The notes under the pieces: generated by a model
Database searches by the model: none
What the model was told of the DNA's origin: nothing
Seen by the model: only the letters and a program-made list of their open reading frames with translations
Translations under genes and position numbers: made by a program
Source of the DNA: Fistulifera solaris
Lineage: Eukaryota
Direction of reading: 5' to 3'
Assembly: GCA_030295235.1 (NCBI GenBank)
Contig: AP026140.1
Span: forward strand, 744,001-808,000
DNA: 64,000 bases
Shown here: piece after piece, positions 17,535 to 45,198 of the stretch
Numbering within the stretch: position 1 is the first letter of the stretch
Layout of the letters: each line of letters begins with the position of its first letter

Positions 17535-17744
17535 GCGTTTATTCGTTGTTGGGTCAAATAAAAACGGAGAGTAATGAGAATGAAAAAGAAAAAGAAAGAG
17601 AAACAGTACAAAGGAGAAACACTTTTGACGTCAATTGGCGCCGTCGCCGTCTTCAGCGTCATCGTCGTTTTCACTGCAGAACGCCGAAAAACAGAGAACT
17701 GTTACTAATTGCGGGAGCGTTAATTGCGTGGTTATTTGGGTGAG

Positions 17745-17831
17745 CGAAATAAGGCAGTGGTGTAAAATTATGACTACAAGTGTTACATCTACCACGGAGG
17801 CTTCCCGTCTGTACTACACTCGGTTATTTCG
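17745..17831 (-). repeat. 3' LTR of element A (87 bp), termini CGAAATAA...TTATTTCG
   Basis: Identical to 24460-24547 except one C in a C-run; preceded on the minus strand by the purine tract GAGGGGA. Confidence 0.93.
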
Positions 17832-17955
17832 GTCCCCTCACGATGAGACCCGAGCTAGGGCTTCAACGTGTCCTTCATAACCGATAAACCCTTATTTCAT
17901 GGAAAAACAACATAAAAACCATGACGATTCATTCATCGAATCCATCCTTCATCAT

Positions 17956-18025
17956 GTGGAAAATACATCAAAACCACACATCGACTTGTCCGTGGAAAAT
18001 ACGTCAAAACCACGTATCAAACTTG
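17956..18025. repeat. 36-bp imperfect tandem duplication in the 3' UTR of element A
   Basis: gtggaaaatacatcaaaaccacacatcgacttg at 17956 and gtggaaaatacgtcaaaaccacgtatcaaacttg at 17992. Confidence 0.8.
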
Positions 18026-18132
18026 AAACTTCAATCACTGTACCTGGACGAAAAACTTATCCCCAGGAGGCTCATCCCATCGGAATAGTAAACATAACTA
18101 CCCAACCAGTGCATCGGGACCTATCGCCTGCA

Positions 18133-21100
18133 TCACTGATGTAAAATACGCTTCACCAGTGGATCTCGTACATTCCCAGCTTGAATCTTCGTCAGAATAT
18201 CTGCCAAATTCGTCTTCGTAGGCTCGTAGGATACATCAACGATACCCATCGCAACTTCAGCTCACGTACATAGTGATATGCCACCGAATTGGACTTCTTC
18301 TTCAGAACTGATTCAGGAATACTCGAGTTCTTGATCACCGACATATTGTCACCTTTGACAACCGCAGGATCTTCTACCGGAACACCCATCATCTGTAGTT
18401 TGTACCGTAGACCTTCGATTAACTCGACCGCCCGTTTTCATAGCACTAAACTCAGCACCAAATGTGGACGTCTCAATCGAAGTTTGCTTCTTGCTGTACC
18501 ATACTGTCAATGACCTGTTCAAATAGATCAAGACACCTGTACGGGAACGACGAGTAACATGGTCACCCACCAAGTCAGCATCAACGAAACGTTATTTGCA
18601 CAGGCTTACCCAATGGCTTTGGACAATCCGTCGGAATCATAGGCTTAGCATCTCGGTAAAAGTCATTCCAATCAGGTCTAGGTTGTCTGGCGTGCTCTAC
18701 ATACGAAGGATCGAACACAATCTTAGACCTTTCATGTGACTTCAAATATGCAAAGACATGCACAACCGCCGCTAGATGGCCTTTCCTTGGCATCGCACTG
18801 TGAGACGCAAGCATCGAAACTTCACCACAAATATCAACTCTTCCAAGCTCGACCATCCAGCGTAAAACCCCTATCTGCGAGTGATAAAACTGAATTTCGC
18901 CGTCATCGCACTCCGGCGATATGTCAAGCTCCGGACGATACTTCGATGGTAAAACACTTGACGCCTTCTTCGGGTAAAGCCTCATCTCGCTTTTCCAACC
19001 AAAGACAAACGTTTCGTATTGCTTCCTTCACATATTCATTCGAACTCATCGACCAACAAGGCTTTTCATCACCCGGGAATTGATGCTGACCAATCGTCGA
19101 ACCCAAGTAGCGAAGTTGGCTTGCCTATCGAACCTTCTTTCAGAAGAAAGTGTTGATCAAGCTTGTATAGAATAGCTTCCGGCGCCACAGAAACACACAG
19201 GATGTCATCCGTATAGACCAATACCAACTCGTAGTAACTAGTCCCATCCGCTTTCTGTGCCGGCCGTATCCATACATCGTTATCCCATTTCGACAAGGTG
19301 TAAAACTCAACGACTCATGCAAACACTCACTCAGATATGACCTCCACGCAGCTCCAGAACTCTTCAGTCCGTAAAGAGCTTTCACGATTTTCGCCTTTCG
19401 ACCTTTGAACTGTGGACCAAATTCGGCACCGCAAATAATAAAGATTCGTTCTCGAACTGGTGCATTCAAGTACGCATTTCCAATATCTGCCGCCATAATG
19501 TCCAAATCGTTCAATGCCGCTAGTAGGAAGGCAATCCGCACGCTTTCCCTCGATACAACACTAGCATAGGTAATCGAGCTCGGCGGATCCGTCATGTGTC
19601 CCCCCTGCTACGGCCGGGCCTTCCGTGTGAAATCTGGTTTTATATCAAAAACCATGTGAACCCCAATCTTGGTAAAACCAGCAGGATCGGAGCGTCTTCA
19701 TCAAGGATCTGAAACGCCTCAGCTACCGCGACGCATCTCTTCGCAATCGCCGCCCCAAAAGTCAGTTCCCGTGAGCGATCAATCGCCAATGCTTCTTCGA
19801 CTGTCTTTGGCAATGCGATCCCATATTTCTGAGTAACACGAAAGTAGCGCTTAGCCATCGCTTTGATGATCCTGGTCCTTCTCTTGAGCTTTGTAGGGAA
19901 CCCACCATGAGAAAGCAGGCTCCTCAGCAATCTGTCTCGCAACAGCAAATTCCGCTAACTGTAAAGGGTGAGACTGCTTTAGGTCTTTCAGTTTCTCCCA
20001 AGTAGTAGTGCCATCATTCCATAGACAACACAGTTTCCATCCCTTGGTAGTCCGCTTAGGATACTTTCGGTTGTTGTGGATCACGAATGCCTCTTCATGC
20101 GGAACCGCGTCGACTCTTTCTTGTAGTCCACTATTTCCTTTAGGACATAACTCGCACGCCCATGGTCATCCACTTCGGCATAGATGGCTTCAGCGATCTG
20201 ATTCGCATGATAAGCCTCCACTTCACCCGTATCAAATTCAATCTCATACAGAGCGGTATCGAGCAAAGGGTTAGGATGGTACCGGCCAATAGGATTCCCG
20301 TCTTGATCGTGCTTCCGACCTTTAACCGTACCGTACGACATCGAGTCCCCTTGCGGAAGCATTACCCTTGCTGAGATATATTGATTGTATGAATCGTAAT
20401 CAAACTCATCAGCTTCCTTTATCTCGGGAACTTCGGGATCATGCGACTCGGTCGGAACATAGTATTCCAACTCTGGGGTGCTTCGTCTTCCGGTATCTCG
20501 GTCGGATCCAAGGGCATGGCTCGGTCCTTCAGCTTTTGCTCCAACGTCTGCGTGAACTTTGCCTTCAACTCAGCAACGGCTTGGCTATTCTGTTCCTCAA
20601 CTGACAAAGGGAAAACACTTGTACGGGAAATCGGTCGACCAGAAGCGGGTAGGATCCTAGCACATAGGACATCACCGACATCGGAAACTGGGACCAAGGT
20701 ATCTTCCAAGATGCTTCCTTTCCATATTTTTGTCTTGAGGCGAGATAAACCAAACCCAATCATACCAACCGAACTCACAAATGTGTGAAATATCAGCGGT
20801 GTCCCCTGTCAAAAGCGTCTACGGCACTTCACCATCTAACTGTCTTATGGAAAGACAAGAGTGGCTCCGAACATACGCGTGGTAGACCAAACATAGGTCC
20901 CATAGACAACGTGGGGAATTCGTGCGAATCATAGCACGCCTATACATCCTTTTCAATTCACGAATGCCGTCTTCAGCGAGGGTTGGCGTTAGCGTGTGCT
21001 TCGATCGGCCTAATGGTCGCTTGCACTCGCTATGCCTCTTCGCTTAAACTCTCCTGCTGTCAACTCTCCGGCATTGTCTGGAATTAAAGTGTGAGGGACT

Positions 21101-23585
21101 CCGACGACGAAACAAGTTTGTCAAGCGTGTAATGGGCATCGCTTTTCAATCGGGTCCACACATATCCAGTGAAAGGGGGTGCAATACACAGCCGCATATT
21201 TGTTACCCAGCAGTGAGACACATGTACCGACCAGAATGTCGCGAGTACATCTCCGTATTAAGCCGAGGATAACGCAGCTGGTACGCAAATGGTTTGAGAC
21301 GGCGCGTTCCAGAGACTGTCGAGAAGTCCCGAATTGCCCGTTGCGTCGTTTCGCTGGAGCGTTCGCCTAGCCGTCTCGATCCCTATACTCCATCATTTTG
21401 CCAAATCTTCGGGTGTGACATATGCTTTCCGGTTCTTCGTTGAGATTGCGGCACTTGTAAGCGAAGCAGCATACGAATCGATGTCAAAAGCTGCCGAACC
21501 GCTCAGCTGAAATCACAGCAATCGAACGAGCTGGCGGGACAAACGTCGCGCTCACTCGTAACCGAACCAAGCATCCTCTGTCCCCCTAAACGAAGCTCAG
21601 AGTCAAGGGAAACACGCAATGAGTCCTCATCATGCTGGCGTGGTTAGAATCCATAGGATCCCAGAACGACTCGGAGGTGACGTTTACATGGATGCAGTCA
21701 ACGTCCGAGCTCAGTTCTTTGTCGGTCGGTCGGCGAGTGGGGAAATATGAAATAGTCCCCATCAGTTTCAAAGGAATCTGGAGAGCTGGCTCAGAAAACA
21801 AAATAGAATGGCTCTCCGGGCGACGTTGTTCCGGGAGGTAGGTGTAGGAGAGGAGTTTCATTCACAACGACTTGGTTGTGCCGAAGTTGAGCGGGGCTGA
21901 TCAAGTGTCGATGCATGTTTGAAAAGTAGAGTGACTGGTGAAAGAACAAAACGTGGGTTTGCAGCGTCGTGGGGCAATCGTATGCAACCGCGAACTGTAC
22001 CAATGGGAACTTTGGTCACTTTCCCAAGAGAACTAATGAATGGTTCCACCGAAACTGTTTCGGCCGGTATCATACACGAGAACCGCGTCTTTACCGAACG
22101 AGCAAGTATCACAGTGCGAGTCCAATTCAGCTCTACCAGGAGTCTGTTGTCGCATTGCCGCCGCGAACTCGCTGCACCGCCAGTCAAGGTCGTCGACTCA
22201 TGCGGTTACCTGTCGACTCAACCACATCGTCACTATCGGAGTCAGCCGTCTCAACAGCTGAAGCATTTCGCGTCTCGGACTTAGCCCTTTCACGAGCATT
22301 GCGAACTTCTTCCTGTTTCTCTTTCGGTAACTTGATCCACTCCTTCCATTTGTAGTACGGGACACCATCCTTGCCTTTCTTTGCTTTTCCGCCCTTTCCT
22401 TGACCAGATTTGCCGCCACCTTTCTTGTTGTTACCGCCAGAATTTCTGGTAACCGAAGAAATGTTGCGAGTGGAACCACGGGTCTTTGCTGCATCTTGCT
22501 TCTTTCTATCAACCTGCTCAGCCAAGTAGTTCATCGCGTTTTCGAAGGTACTTTCCAACACAGCATCAGCCCGGACGCTCGGCGCTCATCTTTAGTTCAT
22601 CTGCCCAGATGTTGTCTAGAAAGATTCGTACCTTCCTATCTTCAGTCATCACCTCACCCGCCTCTTCCAAGTCCAAGAAAGCCAAGTTAAGCTTCTGACA
22701 GTAGTCTTCAAAGGTAAAGTTACGCCTTTCCATCATAGAAGACTGTCGAAAGGACTCGGTCGGCATGAGCAATGTTGCGCTTCTGATAAGAACGCCCCAT
22801 ATAGTGAGTCTTCAAGGCAAAATAAGCGGCGCGTCCATCTTTGCTGTAAGCAAAAGGCTTAACCCAATTCCAAGCTGGTCCACCGTGTGAAACCTGACGA
22901 ATAACGCTCCACAGCATCATATTGTCTTCTTCATACTGGTCTCCATCATGGCGAACGACGAACAAGTTCCGACATAGCATCAGGGACACCGAAACCTGGA
23001 TCATCAACCCCTTCGATTCCATCGGGATCGACATGCTCCCGCACAAGGTATGACAAAGGCGCACCATAAGCTCCAAGGTGATTGCCAAGTACCTCGTCGA
23101 TGTCTTCAATCGTCTTCCGAGCGTTTTCCACCTTCAACAACACATCGATCTTAGGAAGATCTTTGTTGGTCTCACGCGACGAATGCGCTCACGCCATAAA
23201 GTCCAAGCGCGTTCCAATCGAGCAAGAGTTGCAAAGCCAGGAACAAACTCGCTGCAAGCGGTGCAAGTGGAAAAGGAAGTAGCGAAGCTGACGAACACGG
23301 AGCTCAAGATTGACTCCGATCGCAATACCACGGTTCGGAATCATCGCAGGTACCATCGGTGCAGCCTCCGCTCCAACCGCAGGAAGGACAAAGGCTGGGT
23401 TTGGAATCAAACCCCCAGGGTTTCGAATCTTCGTAAAGATCTCCTGAACGTACTTATCACTCCGGTGCGTCAAGTCGTCAAACGCTGGTAATGCCTTGGC
23501 CATTGATGGCCTGACGAGCTGCCGCATCCTCAATAAAGAGGACATCACGGAGGTAGTTGTTGAATGCAGCAAGATTGGCTGCCAT
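18133..23585 (-). CDS. gag-pol polyprotein of element A, fragmented by many indels
   Basis: Gag start MAANLAAFNNYLRDVL; DGRAAYFALKTHYMG; ITYASVVSRESVR; DIGNAYLNA; KALYGLKSSGAAW; YTDD; SRTGVLIY..WYSKKQ..ETSTFGAEF; GDN; DILTK. Confidence 0.9.
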
Positions 23586-24447
23586 CGTAAACAAGGAGAA
23601 AGGAGAGAAAAGTTCACAAATCGGAATGCGAGGGAGATAAAACGAAACGACGTTTTCTTTTCTTTTTGTGTGCGAAACTGCATAACGCTTTGCACGAAAT
23701 TCCGACCCCTTTACTCTCCCTTCGAGAGTGTTGCTTACTGTAGGGAACTCCAGTGTAAAGCGTCAAAAGTGCCCTTATGTACGTAAGGCCATTGTACACA
23801 CTAGCCCATACAGAACAATCGTCCACACCCTCATTTAGCTCTGAATCCGTTCATAGTCAAAAAGACAGATCGGCCTAAACAGTATAGAACACGACCTCGG
23901 ACAGGCCAAAATACACGCACAACACGATTTCACTTGCGCAACTTCTCGCGAAATCCGACGATGTTGTGCTTTGACCGCCTCTGGAGGAAAAACATCCCTC
24001 CACCATGAGGACTTCGCAACAATCGGGTGAATAATTCACTCATTTATGTATTCTAGCATTAAAGGTGTATTAGCATGCATACGAGGCGTCCCCCATATTT
24101 TACCGACAAGTGACATAATCACTGTGGTCCGATGCATCCATCGACAGAGCCAGAACTGTCAATAAAGGAAAGCAACGGTGCTTCATAAGCGCTAATTACC
24201 TCACAAACCCAGCCATCTAATCAAGACATATGATTAACATGATGACTCCATGGGGTCGACCTATACATAAGGTCATGATCTCACATTTTCATGTGGACAA
24301 TTGTCGACTTCCGACAACGCCGAGATCATCTCCTTGACCACTCAAGCCCAACAGTTAGTAACACATACATAAGGAACATTACTCTTACGATATTACCATT
24401 GTTTTCCTGTGTATTTCATCGTTTCAGAGGGATTCATCGCGAAACCC

Positions 24448-24459
24448 CGGCTTTTAACC
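24448..24459 (-). promoter_or_regulatory. Putative primer-binding site GGTTAAAAGCCG, complementary to the tRNA-Lys(UUU) anticodon arm
   Basis: Directly abuts the 5' LTR. The plus strand reads CGG-CTTTTAA-CC, i.e. stem, 7-nt anticodon loop, stem, in the same register as the hemivirus PBS GGTTATGGGCCC. Confidence 0.7.
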
Positions 24460-24547
24460 CGAAATAAGGCAGTGGTGTAAAATTATGACTACAAGTGTTA
24501 CATCTACCACGGAGGCTTCCCCGTCTGTACTACACTCGGTTATTTCG
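24460..24547 (-). repeat. 5' LTR of element A (88 bp)
   Basis: Direct repeat of 17745-17831. Confidence 0.93.
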
Positions 24548-24639
24548 TGAGCGCGATCTGATTGGCTGTTGGTACGTCATAACGTTCCCATAACGTCTTT
24601 TGAAAACTACAAAAAAACGACGAATGAAGACGAATGAGC

Positions 24640-37914: not shown

Positions 37915-38185
37915 TGAAAGAATTACACAGTGCTGGAGTGTACCAATCCCGGGTGCAGTCACGGGTTATGGTTCCTTAGCAATTCTCGGAGCTTTTGTTC
38001 TTATTCCGATGGAAAGCGGTCATCCTGATCGTCAAGTAATCGTGGGGAACGATTTAATGTAGAGAATAGAATAATGACCGCTCACTGGGTAGCAAAGGAT
38101 GCAAAACCTTCGCTTCACAAATGGTCACAATTTACGCTAGCAGCTTTTTCACGTCTGTTTATAGCGTTACTTCTATATTCTTACA
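37915..38185 (+). repeat. 5' LTR of element B (271 bp)
   Basis: tgaaagaattac...ttcttaca; no difference from 44928-45198 seen by eye. Confidence 0.96.
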
Positions 38186-38229
38186 GTTTATCAGAAAACC
38201 CAAAGACTTTACAAACCAGCTCAGCTACG

Positions 38230-41200
38230 ATGGACTCCTTTGAACGCATGATGGAACGCGCAATCGAGGTGATTGCAGCCGGTGGGCCCCCGCCAGAGGT
38301 TCCGATTGATATCCCTGAAGGACCGGTCATTCCTCATGTCCCGGTCAACTACCGCATCCCTCAAGGCTTTCCGAACCCGCCACCGCCCGCTCCATTGGAA
38401 GGGGGAAGTCGCTGTGCGCTTCGTGCTCACGCAGTGTGGCTTGAATAACGATCAGGCGACGCGCTTCATGGATATGAGTGTCAACTCCCTTGAGGACCTC
38501 TCCGAGGCAAGAGAGTCCGAGATTGAAGACCACATCAAGTTGTTGAGTACACCTGTTAACCGCGGTGGGGCGATCTTGGGACTCGGGAGTGCATCGAAAG
38601 TGAAGGCCGGGCGTCTCTTTTGCACGAACTTGCTCGAGTTGGTGAGGGTGGTGCAATCGACGTCTACAAGGTCTCTCTTCCGACTCTTCAGCGTGGCAAG
38701 TCGAAGTCGCGCTATCAACGACGTGGATGACAAGATTACAGTCACTCCACCTTCGTTGTTCGACCCAAAGGACTGGGTTTCTTTCAAGGATGGCGTTGAG
38801 AATTATTTCCGCCAAACGAAGGGGACAAGAAAAATTCCGCTCTACTACGTGATTCGCGAGTGATGATCGTCCCGATTTCAGTACTATCAGCTTCGCCCGA
38901 GTCTCGCATGTGGAGCGCCTCACACTCTGGACCCGAGTACGATAACGATAACGCACGTGTCTATCAGCAACTTGTCCAGTTGATGCGCTGAACCGATGCG
39001 TGGACTTACGTGGTTGGGACATCGGAAGCTGAAAATGGCCCTCAAGATGGACGTGCCGCCTGGCGTCGACTTTGTCGCCACTACGACGGCCCTCATGCTG
39101 TCGAGAAACGTGTTGCGCTTGCGACTCAGGAGTTGCAGCAGTTGACCTATAAGTCCGAGGCTGTGTTTCCGATGGAACGTTCACGTCACTCGCATGTCGA
39201 ACTGCTTTCGCATTCTTGCACAAAACAAAGCGCCCGAAATCGACTCGCGACAAAATCAATTTCTTTCTCAACAATATCAAGAATCCAAACGAGTATCTTC
39301 TTTCCTACATTGCTCGTGATACAAGTGTCGAATTGAAGCAGAATTTCAAGCTTGCTGCCGATCTCTTGTTGGAAGCTGTGAGTTCTACTGCCCAGCTTCA
39401 TGAGCGCGCGCCACCGGAAACAATCGAACGTTTAGAACATCAATTCCAAGCGTGGAAACGGTGGAGGCGGTGGAAGCGGATCCAACAAGAAGAAGAAAGG
39501 CAACAACGGGCAAGGACCTCCTAAAGGAGCTTACACTTTGGAGGAAAAGAACGGCAAGAAGTACTGCAATGGAATCGATGTCACCGCACCCAAGCGCACC
39601 TTCACGCGTGAAGAATGGGGAAAACTCGGTGATTACATCGAAGTCTTGAAGAATGCTTGCAAGGTCAGCGTCCGCAAAGTCGAAGAAGTCGAATGATGAC
39701 GAAACGGTGAAGGCAAGCAACGGAAATGGCGGCCGCCCGGCACTGGCAGTTATGATGATTGACGGTCCGGCGGTAGGACCAGTGGTGAGAATAGGAGTGT
39801 TTCGGTGCTCCGAGTGACACAAACACGTAAGCTAGCAAAGCTTTTAACCTCTACACCTAATCCTACTGACGCCTAACTTTAAATCTAGATGTGAACTCGA
39901 TTCACATGCTGACACCACTTGTTTTGGTTCCAATTTCGTTCCGATCGGCTGGACCGACATTACTTGCACTGTTTAGCCTTACAGCGATGACTATGAAGCG
40001 AAGACCGATATTCCGATCGCTCATGCAGCTACAGCATATGATGATCCGGTTACAGGTCGAGTTACTATTTTAGTTTTCTACAATGGACTTTGGTTTGGAA
40101 ATCAGCTAAAAGATTCCCTAATCAACCCAAATCAGTGCCGCTCCTTCGGCATTGACCTTTGCGACGATCCGTGGGATCGATCTCGCGGTTTGCGGCTTCG
40201 TGTTCCCGGCGAAGGCTTCGAAATTCCGTTTACCTACGAGAAGAATGTTGTCTTTTTCGAAAGCGAGTACCGACACAAGAGGAACTTGACAAGTGTTTTC
40301 GCGTAAAAATGACTTCAAAAGTCGCCTGGGATCCTGCAACTATCGGTGCCCCACGATTGTCGCATGAAGAGGAGACAAAACGGCGACTTATCGGCCAAGT
40401 TCGGATCGATCCAGCCATTGTTTCCAACGACACTGCAGCGCTTCAATTGGATAGCAAAGAATTCGATGTATTGTTGAATGATTGTAGCGCAGTTTTCTCG
40501 GAAGAGGTGTTTACTCAACGGTTGATTGCTGCGGTTCAAATTGCCTCCGATTGTGACCCGCCGGAACCTGAGGGGCAGACCTCAGGGGAGTCGAATCAAG
40601 AGGAGCCAAGCTTTCAAGTCGGCGCAATCAACGTTAACCAGCGCCATTCTCGCGCTACTCCGGCAGAAATATCCCGAAGATTTCATTGTGGTCTCGAAAC
40701 GGCGAGTAAAACCATCAACGCCACCACGCAATTTGGAGTTCGGACTGCCGTCGGACCCCTGGTTCGACGATACTACCCAGACTTGTTGCAGATGAAGTAT
40801 CGAAGACTCCGAAGCACCTTTTTCAACGACACCATGTTCTCCAAGACGCTCAGTCTGCGCGGTAATAAAAGCGCTGGAAGTTTTCACAGATGGCAGTTAC
40901 GTTTCCGTAAAGCCGACACCAGACAAGACAGGCGAGACGGTTGCGAACGCTCTCCGTGAGCTCATCCAAGAGGTCGGAATACCCCAGAAGATAGTGACCG
41001 ACGACGCTAAGGAGAAGCTCGGCCCCAAGACGAAGTGGATGGAGCATGTCCGACAGTACAAGATGGATTGGGCAAACACCGAGCCATACTCTCATTGGCA
41101 AAACCGTGCAGAAGATGCGATTCGAGAAGTTCGTCAAAGATGGAAATTGTTGCAACATCGGAAGTCGATACCGAAGCGACTTTGGGACTATGGTTTAACA

Positions 41201-44032
41201 CACATCGCCGAGATTATGTGTCGAACTGTACGAGCTGGATCCGATCGAACCCCCCACGAAATAGTGACAGGAGACACGCCAGATATCTCCGAATACTTGG
41301 ATTTCGACTTCTATGATTGGGTTTGGTACTTAAATAACCCGAACGACAAGGAAGATCCGCTGTCACTTGGACGATGGCTAGGAGTTTCTCATCGCGTAGG
41401 ATCTGCTATGTGCTACTACGTACTGACTCAGAAAGGGATAGTTCTGTCAAGAACTTCGGTTCAAGGTGTTACAGTTCAAGAACATTTATCGGATGAAGTG
41501 CGTGGTCGCATGGAGAAGTACGATCTTGAAATTGGCAGTCGTCTAGCCGATGAAAAGTACACAAATGAAGCAAGTGCCGACGGAATAATTTTCCTCGAAG
41601 ATCTCGAATCTACAGTTGAAGGTGAAGAAGACAGTCCAATCAAAGATGCCGATGATCTGTGGGATGAAGATAACATGCAAGCTTACGACCATTATGTCAA
41701 TGCAGAGATTCTACTCCCAGTCGGTGATGGAAGGATAGCTGGAACTGTCAAGAAACGCAAGCGTGACTCAGACGGGAAACCAGTCGGGAAACGCCACCTT
41801 AATCCTATGATGGATACAAGACTGTACGAGGTTGAACTTGCTGACGGTACTGTGAGAGAACTTCACGCGAACAATATTGCTGAGTGCATGTTTTCCCAAG
41901 TTGATAGCGAAGGACGCCGTGTCGATTGTTAAAGGAAATCACCAATCATCGAAAGAACGCGTCAGCTGTTTCAAAGGAAGACGGAGTTGTACTTATGCCC
42001 AACGGAAATAAAGCGAAGAAATTAACTACGCGCGGTTGGGAGCTACATGTTGATTGGCAAGAAGGGACATCCGATTGGGTACCTTTAAAAGAATTGAAGG
42101 AAGCTTATCCAGTACAAGTTGCGGAATACGCGAGGGCAAACAAGATTGATGATGAGCCAGCATTCGCGTGGTGGGTTGGTCATGTTCTTCGAAAACGGAA
42201 TCGAATTTTGGCGAAAGTTAAATCACGATACTGGAAGACGACTCACAAATTCGGTATTCGAATCCCCAAGACTGTAAAGGAAGCACTTCAAATCGACGAA
42301 GAAACCGGTACTGATTTCTGGCGTCGCGCAATCGAGAAAGAAATGGGCAAGATTAACGCTATGGGCGCTTTCGAACGGTGGAATGGCGGAACTGCCGACG
42401 ATCTTCGGAGTGGAAAAGTCAAACTACCGGGCTATCGAGAGATAACTTGTCACATGATTTTCGATATCAAGATGGATGGAAAATTTACAAGAAAAGCACG
42501 CTTTGTGGCGGACGGTAACCAAACTGGTGAAGTCCCAGCGCACCTCACTTATTCTTCAGTCGTGACTCGTGAATTGGTTCGGATCGCATTTCTTTATGCC
42601 GCACTCAATAATTTGGATATTCTCGGATGCGATGTAACGAATGCTTACTTGAACGCGCCATGCCGAGAAAATTTGGGTGAAAGCCGGCCCCGAGTTCGGA
42701 GATGATTTAGTGGGCGCCTGCATGCTGATACGAAAAGCGCTTTACGGGCTTAAGAGTTCGGGCTATAGTTGGAGGAAAGCACTTTCTGAGACACTTTCCG
42801 ACATGGGCTATCAGTCAACAGTAGCCGATTCAGATGTCTACAGACAACGCAGCACTCGCAAGAATGGAAGTCACTACTGGGAATTCATTTTGACTTATGT
42901 CGATGATATTCTGTGTGTCAGCGAGAAGCCCGTTGAAACTATGGACATTTTGAAAAGACTTACGCACTTAAGGAGGAGGCTGCCGAGCCAGAAAGATACC
43001 TTGGTGCGAACATCGCTAAAGTTCAATTGGCTGATGGGAGAACAGCTTGGTCGATGTCCAGTAATGATTATGTCAAAGCCATTGATGTTGTCAAGGGAAT
43101 GCTTGCGGAAGACCATAAAGTGTTAAAGCAAGGAAAGGGCAGTGATCGACCGATGCCACAAAATTATCGTCCAGAGGAGGATACAACTCGCGTTCTCGGC
43201 GATAGGTTAGCCTCAAGATATCAGCAACTCATCGGGATGTTACGTTGGGCTTGTGAGTTGGGGCGAGTTGACATTTTGCTAGAGACAGCGTTGATGTCGA
43301 CGTGTTTATGTATGCCACGTGAGGGTCATCTCGAAGCGGTCTACAAGATATTCGCGTACTTGGACGCACACAGGCAATCCAATATGATCTTTGATCCGAA
43401 AGTTGTGGAATTGAATGAGTCTGCGTTTAACAAAACAGATTGGGCCGATTCGGTTTACGGTGATGTGAGTGAAGAATTACCCCCGAATGTCGCCCGAGCC
43501 ACTCGGAATGCCGGTGCACATCACGTGTTTCGTTGATGCGAATCATGCTGGTGACACTCAGACACGGCGATCGCAAACAGGGTTCATCATTTACTTGAAC
43601 AACGCGCCGATCGATTGGTATTCCAAGAAGCAGAATACATGTGAATCTTCTACATTTGGGTCTGAGTTTGTTGCAATGAGAATAGCGGTGGAGAGAATTC
43701 GTGCGCTCAGATATAAGCTACGGATGTTCGGAATACCCATCGCAGGTCCAGCTATAATATTGGGAGACAACGAAAGCGTGGTCAACAGTGCATCCAAAAT
43801 GGAAGCGCGATTGAATAAGAAGCATAACGCGATTTGCTTTCATGCTGTCAGAGAAGCTTGTGCAGCCGGTTGGATTCGAGTTGGCTGGGAGCCTACAGCA
43901 ACGAATATAGCAGATTTATTTACCAAGATGCTTCCAACAGAGAAACGGCGGGAACATATGCAGAAGATCTTTATCAAGAAAGTGAGACGGATTTCTAGTG
44001 ACAATTTTCTTAGCAAGTTTGAGTCATGTTAG
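38230..44032 (+). CDS. gag-pol polyprotein of element B, fragmented by indels
   Basis: IPLYYVIR, QDGRAAWRRLCRHYDG, FFNDTMFS, VTDDAKE, EPYSHWQNRAEDAIRE, TGDTPDISEYLDFDFYDWVWY, RKARFVADG, KALYGLKSSG and STFGSEFVA. Confidence 0.92.
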
Positions 44033-44927
44033 TGACTGATTTTCCATAGTATTTGTGTAGTCTACTACTTATACTACACAAAGACGGCGCATCGGTATTG
44101 CTATTTAGACTTCGACTGTCTATTTGAAGATAGAGTCACTTGGATACCATTGGGAGTTATTTGAAGTTGCAGTTACAAGGTTTGGATACCGTTGAGAGTG
44201 CAACGTCGACAATTTTGCAGACGTGGACATGTTTCTTCTCTTGCCACGACTGACTGTCACGTAGACCTTCAGTACATTTCTTACGTGTCGTAGCCAACCT
44301 ACGGAAGCCTACGGAGCTATGTTCATTTTCTACAGGAATCCAGTACTTGTTTTCTTTGCCACCTCAGCACAAGTTCACGAAGATTGGAGAAAGGTGTGCA
44401 ATCATTTTCCATTAGAATAGGTCTCATAAAATAAGAAATCAATCAATCTATACCGAGTTTACTGAGTCTTCTTTTTGTGGTGAAATTCTCAAGGTCACAA
44501 GCCTTGCGAGTCGATCTACATCCTTTGAGTCCAGGCAGGCAGACAGTGAGTAAGTAACAACAAGCGCACTGTGTGGTTGTCTTTGCTGATTATTGCAATC
44601 AAAGAGTGTTTGCGATATCAGTGCTTTCGTTTGTCAGTCGATCATCTCATCAAAGAGTGTTGAGTTGGTTGATTGTCGTCTTTGGCGTGAGGATATTCCG
44701 CATTCCGAATTCCGTGAGCTATCTGTGCGCTCGGAATTTCTGTCATCTAGCAAGAAAGACGATGGCGTGGGATAGCTATCGAGACGCGGGGACTGTCCGC
44801 AGTTCCTCCTGAGCTTCCAAAAGGGTTGTGCGCGATACAAGTGCAGGTTGGATTGATTAAGCGAACTGTGGAATTCAGAAATGAGTTGCGATCGACGGTT
44901 GAGGCACCTTAGTCGACACGAGAGGAG

Positions 44928-45198
44928 TGAAAGAATTACACAGTGCTGGAGTGTACCAATCCCGGGTGCAGTCACGGGTTATGGTTCCTTAGCAATTCTC
45001 GGAGCTTTTGTTCTTATTCCGATGGAAAGCGGTCATCCTGATCGTCAAGTAATCGTGGGGAACGATTTAATGTAGAGAATAGAATAATGACCGCTCACTG
45101 GGTAGCAAAGGATGCAAAACCTTCGCTTCACAAATGGTCACAATTTACGCTAGCAGCTTTTTCACGTCTGTTTATAGCGTTACTTCTATATTCTTACA
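44928..45198 (+). repeat. 3' LTR of element B (271 bp)
   Basis: Direct repeat of 37915-38185. Confidence 0.96.

Follow-up and report, generated by a model that had tools for sequence, protein, structure and literature searches.

The closest described systems are copia-type elements primed from within a tRNA. According to the available part of PMC1181622, cDNA synthesis in Ty5, copia, Osser and 1731 starts at the 3′-OH of tRNA nucleotide 40, in the anticodon stem-loop, and the use of half tRNAs does not follow the full-length reverse transcriptase (RT) tree. In plants, half-tRNA priming has been inferred by complementarity, with Met and Ile as the only tRNAs named in the accessible portion of Neumann et al. 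2019 (PMC6317226): Bianca is assigned 1/2 tRNA-Ile with inosine at position 34, and Osser, Bryco and Gymco-II are assigned 1/2 tRNA-Met. In fungi, the available text of PMC10886601 describes anticodon-loop priming with Tyr, Ile, Asp, iMet and Asn tRNAs, and the primer tRNA of fungal Copia elements has changed repeatedly, with at least five changes in one fungal group. A fungal element, FunCo1, has a primer-binding site (PBS), ATTAAGAGTCT, that is given as complementary to an internal region of tRNA-Lys in the part of PMC5445492 at hand; by our reading of the complement, this site would fit the CUU anticodon arm.

Diatoms are not the subject of PMC10886601 or PMC5445492, as far as the available parts of these two papers extend. 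The diatom CoDi elements, which belong to the Ty1/copia group, have short LTRs, that of Blackbeard being 163 bp (Maumus et al. 2009). The main texts of Maumus et al. 2009 and Llorens et al. 2009 make no mention of primer sites or tRNA for the CoDi elements, and their supplements could hold such data.

The locus considered here lies in a 64-kb stretch of DNA, which we call the window. It contains a Ty1/copia-type LTR retrotransposon, element 1, of 6,803 bp at positions 17745-24547 of the minus strand, with the following features in the order in which the element is read.

24548-24551, minus strand: upstream target-site duplication CTCA, read from the sequence; it matches the four bases beyond the 3′ LTR
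24460-24547, minus strand: 5′ LTR of 88 nt with termini CGAAATAA...TTATTTCG, found as a direct repeat
24446-24459, minus strand: putative primer-binding site GGTTAAAAGCCGGG, complementary to nt 27-40 of tRNA-Lys(UUU) (CCCGG CTTTTAA CC)
22168-24445, minus strand: leader and gag-like region, frame-broken as assembled, seen as ORF fragments
18136-22167, minus strand: pol region in the order protease-integrase-RT-RNase H, from tblastn of proteins P0123 and P0001, with at least five frame changes
17832-17839, minus strand: polypurine tract GAGGGGAC, directly 5′ of the 3′ LTR
17745-17831, minus strand: 3′ LTR of 87 nt, found as a direct repeat, one G different from the 5′ copy
17741-17744, minus strand: downstream target-site duplication CTCA, read from the sequence

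The two LTRs are very short and, apart from the single G indel, identical; their ends form an 8-nt inverted repeat and are not of the TG..CA kind. The start of the 5′ LTR was set by analogy with the 3′ copy, whose start directly follows the polypurine tract. The target-site duplication is given as 4 bp, and it can be read as 5 or 6 bp (GCTCA, CTCAC or GCTCAC) if the LTR boundary moves one base. Among the 12 fragments scanned, the sole match to an element family is to RVT_2 (PF07727) at 19140-19607 of the minus strand (E=2.9e-11). By tblastn, element 1 covers Pol residues 1-1348 of P0123, an intact relative, and the comparison with P0001 and P0123 places the integrase before the RT and the RT before RNase H, the order of a copia-type Pol. 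The gag-like region includes a K/R/G-rich piece among its ORF fragments (22184-22585), and a Pfam scan of 22168-24445 gave no match. With its pol cut by frame changes as it is, the copy as assembled cannot be called active. On either side of element 1 lie bestrophin-like ORFs (PF25539; 14836-16224 and 29161-30138, both on the minus strand) that share a 103-nt stretch of 72% identity. The window is otherwise gene-rich, with matches to HAD hydrolase, Rieske, PAP2, FtsJ, sugar transporter and mitochondrial carrier families.

The junction between the 5′ LTR and the site reads, on the minus strand, ...GCCTTATTTCG followed by GGTTAAAAGCCGGGGTTTCG; across the whole site the order is ...CACCACTGCCTTATTTCG, then GGTTAAAAGCCGGG, then GTTTCGCGATG, such that GGTTAAAAGCCGGG directly abuts the 5′ LTR. 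The reverse complement of these 14 bases, CCCGG-CTTTTAA-CC, can be divided into five bases of stem, seven of loop, in which U33 and the anticodon UUU fall, and the first two bases of the return strand. In fact, GGTTAAAAGCCGGG is the exact complement, at 14 of 14 bases, of nt 27-40 (CCCGGCTTTTAACC) in the tRNA-Lys(UUU) genes of contigs L040, L005, L009, L015 and others, and the first base after the 5′ LTR pairs with tRNA nt 40. The initial annotation of this DNA had described a motif that follows the 5′ LTR with no gap, lacks an initial TGG, complements the anticodon stem-loop of tRNA-Lys(UUU) and stands in the register of copia and Ty5. All of this was borne out. The 12-mer GGTTAAAAGCCG lies at 24448-24459 of the minus strand, beside the LTR, as its single occurrence in the window; the minus-strand sequence has no TGG start; the complementarity extends to 14 bases of real tRNA genes; and the first base of the PBS pairs with nt 40, as in the available part of PMC1181622. 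Judged from its sequence, the site is placed as a hemivirus-type primer-binding site would be, and agrees with one in length and register.

The tRNA genes against which the site was read come from a scan of viral contigs for the 14-mer, which returned at least 120 loci. By eye, many of these, uncounted, lie in tRNA-like sequence, with a D-arm before and a T-arm after, and none of the 120 matches listed has an LTR context. ARAGORN was run on five loci, four from the scan for the Lys 14-mer and one, L213, from a separate scan; it called tRNA-Lys(ttt) in all four of the former (L005, L009, L015 with three genes, and L040). The tRNA-Lys(UUU) of L040, a giant-virus contig, reads G26 and then CCCGG CTTTTAA CCGCG. 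The same contig has, at L040:219-1199, ten tRNA genes within about 1-1.2 kb: Ile, Gln, Gly, Met, Lys-UUU, Lys-CUU, two Leu, Asn and Arg. A printed probe for yeast tK(UUU) contains GGTTAAAAGCCG (PMC3568405), and therefore a cytoplasmic tRNA-Lys(UUU) of a eukaryote includes the 12-mer CGGCTTTTAACC. Apart from this probe, a literature search for the sequences of the primer sites turned up nothing but primers and probes.

What can be said of the host's own tRNA-Lys? ARAGORN finds no tRNA gene in the 64-kb window. The contigs of four sequencing runs were aligned to a bait, L040:566-750, that holds the giant-virus tRNA-Lys(UUU) and tRNA-Lys(CUU). One of these runs, from organism A, contains 63% of the sampled words of element 1, and it yielded one contig of 78 nt, at a depth of 48, over positions 582-637 of the L040 contig (nt 8-63 of the tRNA), where 51 of 56 positions agree with tRNA-Lys(UUU). 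The same tRNA-Lys-like contig of 78 nt is also present in metagenome run X1. Beyond nt 63, the organism A contig continues with ACCATAGGTGCTATC; this loose end implies a T-stem return strand CCCAC, and therefore two of the five differences would be placed at nt 49-50. The other three could fall inside the 14-base arm (up to five if the T-stem argument is set aside). Hence there is a lower bound on the match between the organism A tRNA-Lys and the primer site: at least 9 of the 14 positions, or at least 11 with the T-stem argument. In the run of organism B, the Lys(UUU)-like pieces diverge from the bait after the loop, where they read TCCGA..., which means that the arm of tRNA-Lys(UUU) varies between organisms and is not universal. 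We infer that the tRNA of the element's host would match the site. Bulky modifications of tRNA-Lys(UUU), found at its positions 34 and 37, might weaken pairing with the site; the iMet and Ile half-primers, which are established, likewise carry a modified A37.

The intact relatives of the element 1 RT fragment, P0121-P0125, have 86-93% RT identity and are known as proteins only. Alignment of 13 relatives led to 79 metagenome loci (L121-L199) that are at most 61% identical to P0123, and a scan of contigs from metagenome-assembled genomes (MAGs) added 11 loci that are at most 50% identical. The Lys-type 14-mer, with up to one error allowed, is found in 0 of the 79 metagenome loci and 0 of the 11 MAG loci, none of which is among the closest relatives (P0121-P0125). 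The 11-base core of the site, with up to one mismatch, matched four loci, none of them at the PBS position. Counting the two elements in the window together with these loci, the Lys-type site is present in 1 of 92 elements examined.

A different 14-mer, GTTTATCAGACCCA, stands at this position in the relatives. It is exact in 22 of the 79 metagenome loci and present in 29 with up to one error (for example at L177:534-547 and L181:5754-5767), and it follows divergent LTR ends; two of the 11 MAG loci have an Ile-type site. The PBS of L151, L157, L161, L170, L174 and L193, among other loci, was assigned to no type. In the 14 loci where both features could be paired, GTTTATCAGACCCA lies 119-492 nt after the polypurine tract, and short LTRs with inverted termini such as TGAATAAA...TTTATTCA occupy the interval. 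The search for LTR ends by inverted termini was noisy and was used only where it agreed with the polypurine tract and PBS. The two bases that precede GTTTATCAGACCCA are CA in 14 cases, TA in five, GA in two and CG in one. Conservation was counted by anchoring on the central nine bases, in 25 distinct contexts of which three are chance anchor matches; it is confined, at 0.88-1.0, to the 14 columns of the site. The unanchored columns 1-2 and 12-14 are conserved at 0.88-0.96, and column 15 falls to 0.44.

The complement of GTTTATCAGACCCA, TGGGT-CTGATAA-AC, equals nt 27-40 of the L213 gene, a tRNA-Ile(AAT) gene called by ARAGORN in a giant-virus contig, except at position 34, where G stands in place of the gene's A. 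The nearest subclade (L121, L122, L123 and L124) carries a second Ile-type 14-mer, TGTTATCAGCACCA. The base of the site that lies opposite position 34 is C in 22 of 22 loci with GTTTATCAGACCCA and in three of three for the second Ile type. As far as sequence can tell, this C is what a tRNA with inosine at position 34 predicts. The members L121, L122 and L124 are 57-59% identical to P0123, and their LTRs start with CG after GGGGAC, like those of element 1. In the relatives, too, the polypurine motif GAGGGGAC stands directly before the LTR start; the 11-mer GAGGGGACTGA, which joins the polypurine tract to the LTR start, is present in 21 of the 79 loci, and a non-coding motif, GTTTATCAGAC, in 23. 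On these sequences, the place, length and register of the putative site are a property of the lineage, and element 1 has the arm of another tRNA there, the Ile-type 14-mer and the Lys-type site being different at 7 of 14 positions.

Several further observations concern these loci. A search of viral contigs with P0123 found no relative, and ARAGORN on the 79 metagenome loci gave only one tRNA-like call, in L186. The iMet-like sequence GGTTATGAGCCC in L140 was not counted as a primer site, as the contig around it is truncated or rearranged and the sequence precedes a motif like the polypurine tract. Measured against the LTR end that L121 and L124 imply, the repeat common to the two LTR copies of L122 (L122:7412-7510) is five bases longer; the extra bases, TGTTA, are the first five of its primer site, and no matching target duplication was seen beside them. 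The extension may be an unprocessed end that keeps a copy of the primer, or it may be a recombinant. The LTRs of L130 (6661-6920) and L172 (4640-4900), of 260 nt, include a stretch like the reverse complement of a tRNA, with a T-arm-like GGGAATCGAAC and with no call by ARAGORN; this recalls the tRNA-like LTRs of Helenus elements. One metagenome contig of 18 kb (L183:1-18224) repeats a single element with a period of 7,014 nt; it is either an assembly loop or a tandem array with shared LTRs. Terminal redundancy is found in many more contigs, 6-7 kb long, which look like elements that run from LTR to LTR and have collapsed into circles. The 11 MAG loci (L238-L248) are contigs that are assigned to bacterial MAGs and encode a eukaryotic copia polyprotein, L248 within a contig of 62 kb; they are probably eukaryotic DNA binned by mistake.

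The second copia-type element of the window (37915-45198, plus strand) has 271-nt LTRs of the TG..CA kind that are 98% identical, a target-site duplication GAAA and a polypurine tract GAGAGGAG at 44920-44927. Its primer site, from 38186 onward, reads GTTTATCAGA, then a three-base insertion AAA, then CCCA; because of the insertion, only 10 bases of the 14-nt Ile-type site are contiguous. Its polyprotein is 99% identical to a protein whose source name is Fistulifera solaris, and its frames are also broken as assembled. The LTR pairs of both window elements (17745-24547 and 37915-45198) are 98-99% identical, and yet there are several frame changes in pol; these could be indel errors of the assembly and not decay.

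We propose that element 1 primes its minus strand in the manner of hemiviruses, from a 5′ portion of cytoplasmic tRNA-Lys(UUU) that ends at nt 40, on the 3′ side of the anticodon stem, and we consider this reading of the sequences a probable one. Nucleotides 27-40 of the primer, which comprise the 5′ strand of the stem, the anticodon loop and the first two bases of the 3′ strand, would pair with GGTTAAAAGCCGGG abutting U5, and the 3′-OH at nt 40 would be extended into the 88-nt LTR. Plus-strand strong-stop DNA would later copy the primer, and so could rewrite the primer site. Because the primer is copied at this step, a switch of primer would install a new site, and this would explain both the inosine signature in the relatives and the ability of the family to change its primer. 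It is tempting to propose that the family of element 1 has switched in just this way, from tRNA-Ile(IAU), which the nearest sampled relatives appear to use, to tRNA-Lys(UUU).

What, then, would set the length of the site? In eukaryotes, the G at position 26 is often modified to m2,2G, at which reverse transcriptase comes to a hard stop. The sharp 14-nt limit of the site falls at this very position, and both reference tRNAs (Lys in L040 and Ile in L213) have G there. A stop of reverse transcriptase at the modified G26 would set the site at 14 nt.

Other accounts of the site have to be weighed. One of them keeps both the site and the tRNA, and supposes that intact tRNA-Lys(UUU) anneals through its anticodon arm once this has opened, and that the RNase H of the element or a host nuclease then makes the nick after nt 40 while the tRNA is on the template; transposition would therefore be independent of the cell's pool of tRNA fragments. 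We regard this as an unlikely account, though one that must be taken seriously. In its favor, the site needs a 3′-OH at nt 40, and the classical stress-induced tRNA halves, which end in the anticodon loop, would lack nt 36-40. Pulling the other way, copia particles are said to contain the tRNA fragment itself, a report attributed to Kikuchi and the year 1986. The nuclease that makes the nt-40 end is unnamed in the available portions of PMC6317226, PMC1181622 and PMC10886601, which again suits nicking on the template. The cleaved 5′ half of tRNA-Lys that the initial annotation had put forward as the primer thus agrees with the place, length, register and exact complementarity of the site, and these features do not separate a fragment made beforehand from one nicked on the template. 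To tie retrotransposition to tRNA-fragment production, as the same annotation did, was to overstate the case: since halves cut in the loop lack the nt-40 end that the site needs, the link to tRNA-fragment biology is weak. A literature search on diatom tRNA fragments returned nothing usable.

It is also conceivable, if rather improbable, that the site is the fossil of a single mis-priming, in which a fragment of tRNA-Lys served a single time as primer on an Ile-type template and was copied into this insertion by plus-strand synthesis, the site never being used again. The presence of the Lys-type site in a single element out of 92, the Ile-type sites of the nearest sampled relatives and the broken frames of this copy would all suit such an event. 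Nevertheless, all 14 bases of the site are complementary to tRNA-Lys(UUU), although the Ile-type 14-mer differs from them at half its positions, and mis-priming on an Ile-type template would be expected to leave a mixed or partly repaired site. That the likeness to an anticodon arm arose by chance, with priming by some other means, seems to us very improbable. A 12-mer match with up to one mismatch is indeed expected 0.21 times per window, and at least one such match was present in 18 of 100 shuffles; the significance of the site therefore comes from its position, with 14 of 14 bases abutting the LTR, and not from the rarity of the 12-mer. At a fixed position, the chance of such a match is about 4^-14 per tRNA species by our own arithmetic. 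Moreover, the site shares its register with the 14-nt complement of tRNA-Ile in the relatives, this register fits the nt-40 rule of PMC1181622 as given in its available part, and no alternative primer site was seen. We give the least credence of all to self-priming of the Tf1 kind, with the 5′ end of the transcript folding back on the site, or to conventional priming from the CCA end of a tRNA. Some copia lineages, the plant TAR lineage among them, are known to self-prime (PMC6317226, available part). In the window, however, complements of the 14-mer with up to three mismatches number nine, and none of them falls within 24460-24547; the fold of the LTR plus the site is no more stable than that of shuffled sequences (z = 0.04). 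As for the CCA end, the site does not begin with TGG.

Returning to priming from a tRNA-Lys(UUU) portion that ends at nt 40, if it is confirmed, tRNA-Lys(UUU) would join the short list of internal (nt-40) primers of copia-type elements, and the nt-40 mode of priming would be extended to diatom-type algae. No new mechanism is opened by this, and the finding alone provides no link between transposition and stress-induced tRNA halves. The result at the level of the lineage is the more useful one: dozens of environmental relatives carry a sharply bounded 14-nt complement of tRNA-Ile with the signature of inosine 34. This site gives a simple rule for annotating the primer site of short-LTR elements, its inosine signature hints, at the level of sequence, that it is the mature, modified tRNA which is used, and the lineage would offer a concrete case of primer switching.

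A wider reading can be offered tentatively, as one that we hold possible and would not yet favor. A large copia lineage, whose priming is apparently undescribed and which is abundant in environmental assemblies and occurs in a diatom by the source name of one protein, would prime throughout from tRNA fragments that end at nt 40; its site would always be 14 nt long, owing to the stop of reverse transcriptase at the modified position 26, and element 1 would represent a recent switch from tRNA-Ile(IAU) to tRNA-Lys(UUU). If this is true, the lineage would be a natural series for studying primer change and the making of nt-40 tRNA fragments.

The initial annotation, which knew of no such description for diatom elements, overstated the novelty. 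A literature search found no description of a Lys(UUU) half-primer or of primer sites in diatom copia elements; published work on plants and fungi already covers half-tRNA or anticodon-loop priming. Element 1 most likely primes from a cut tRNA, which is a known mode, with a tRNA that is unreported in this role.

Compared with the described systems, element 1 resembles the hemivirus-type elements copia (Drosophila), Ty5 (yeast), Osser and 1731: all are of the Ty1/copia type, with an anticodon-arm site that abuts the 5′ LTR and an nt-40 end, and the likeness is one of primer site. They use half tRNA-iMet, whereas the site of element 1, known from sequence alone, fits tRNA-Lys(UUU). The arm of the tRNA-Met(CAT) of L040, for instance, is TCGGG CTCATAA CCCGA, and the complement of its nt 27-40 would begin with GGTTATGAG, the form that the initial annotation quoted for copia and Ty5. 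Bianca resembles the relatives of element 1 in having C opposite position 34; like Osser, Bryco and Gymco-II, it differs from element 1 in its green-plant host and in the tRNA used. The fungal Copia elements primed from the anticodon arm differ in their hosts, and the Lys site of FunCo1 is not that of the UUU isoacceptor. Finally, the diatom CoDi elements are, like element 1, copia-type elements with short LTRs.
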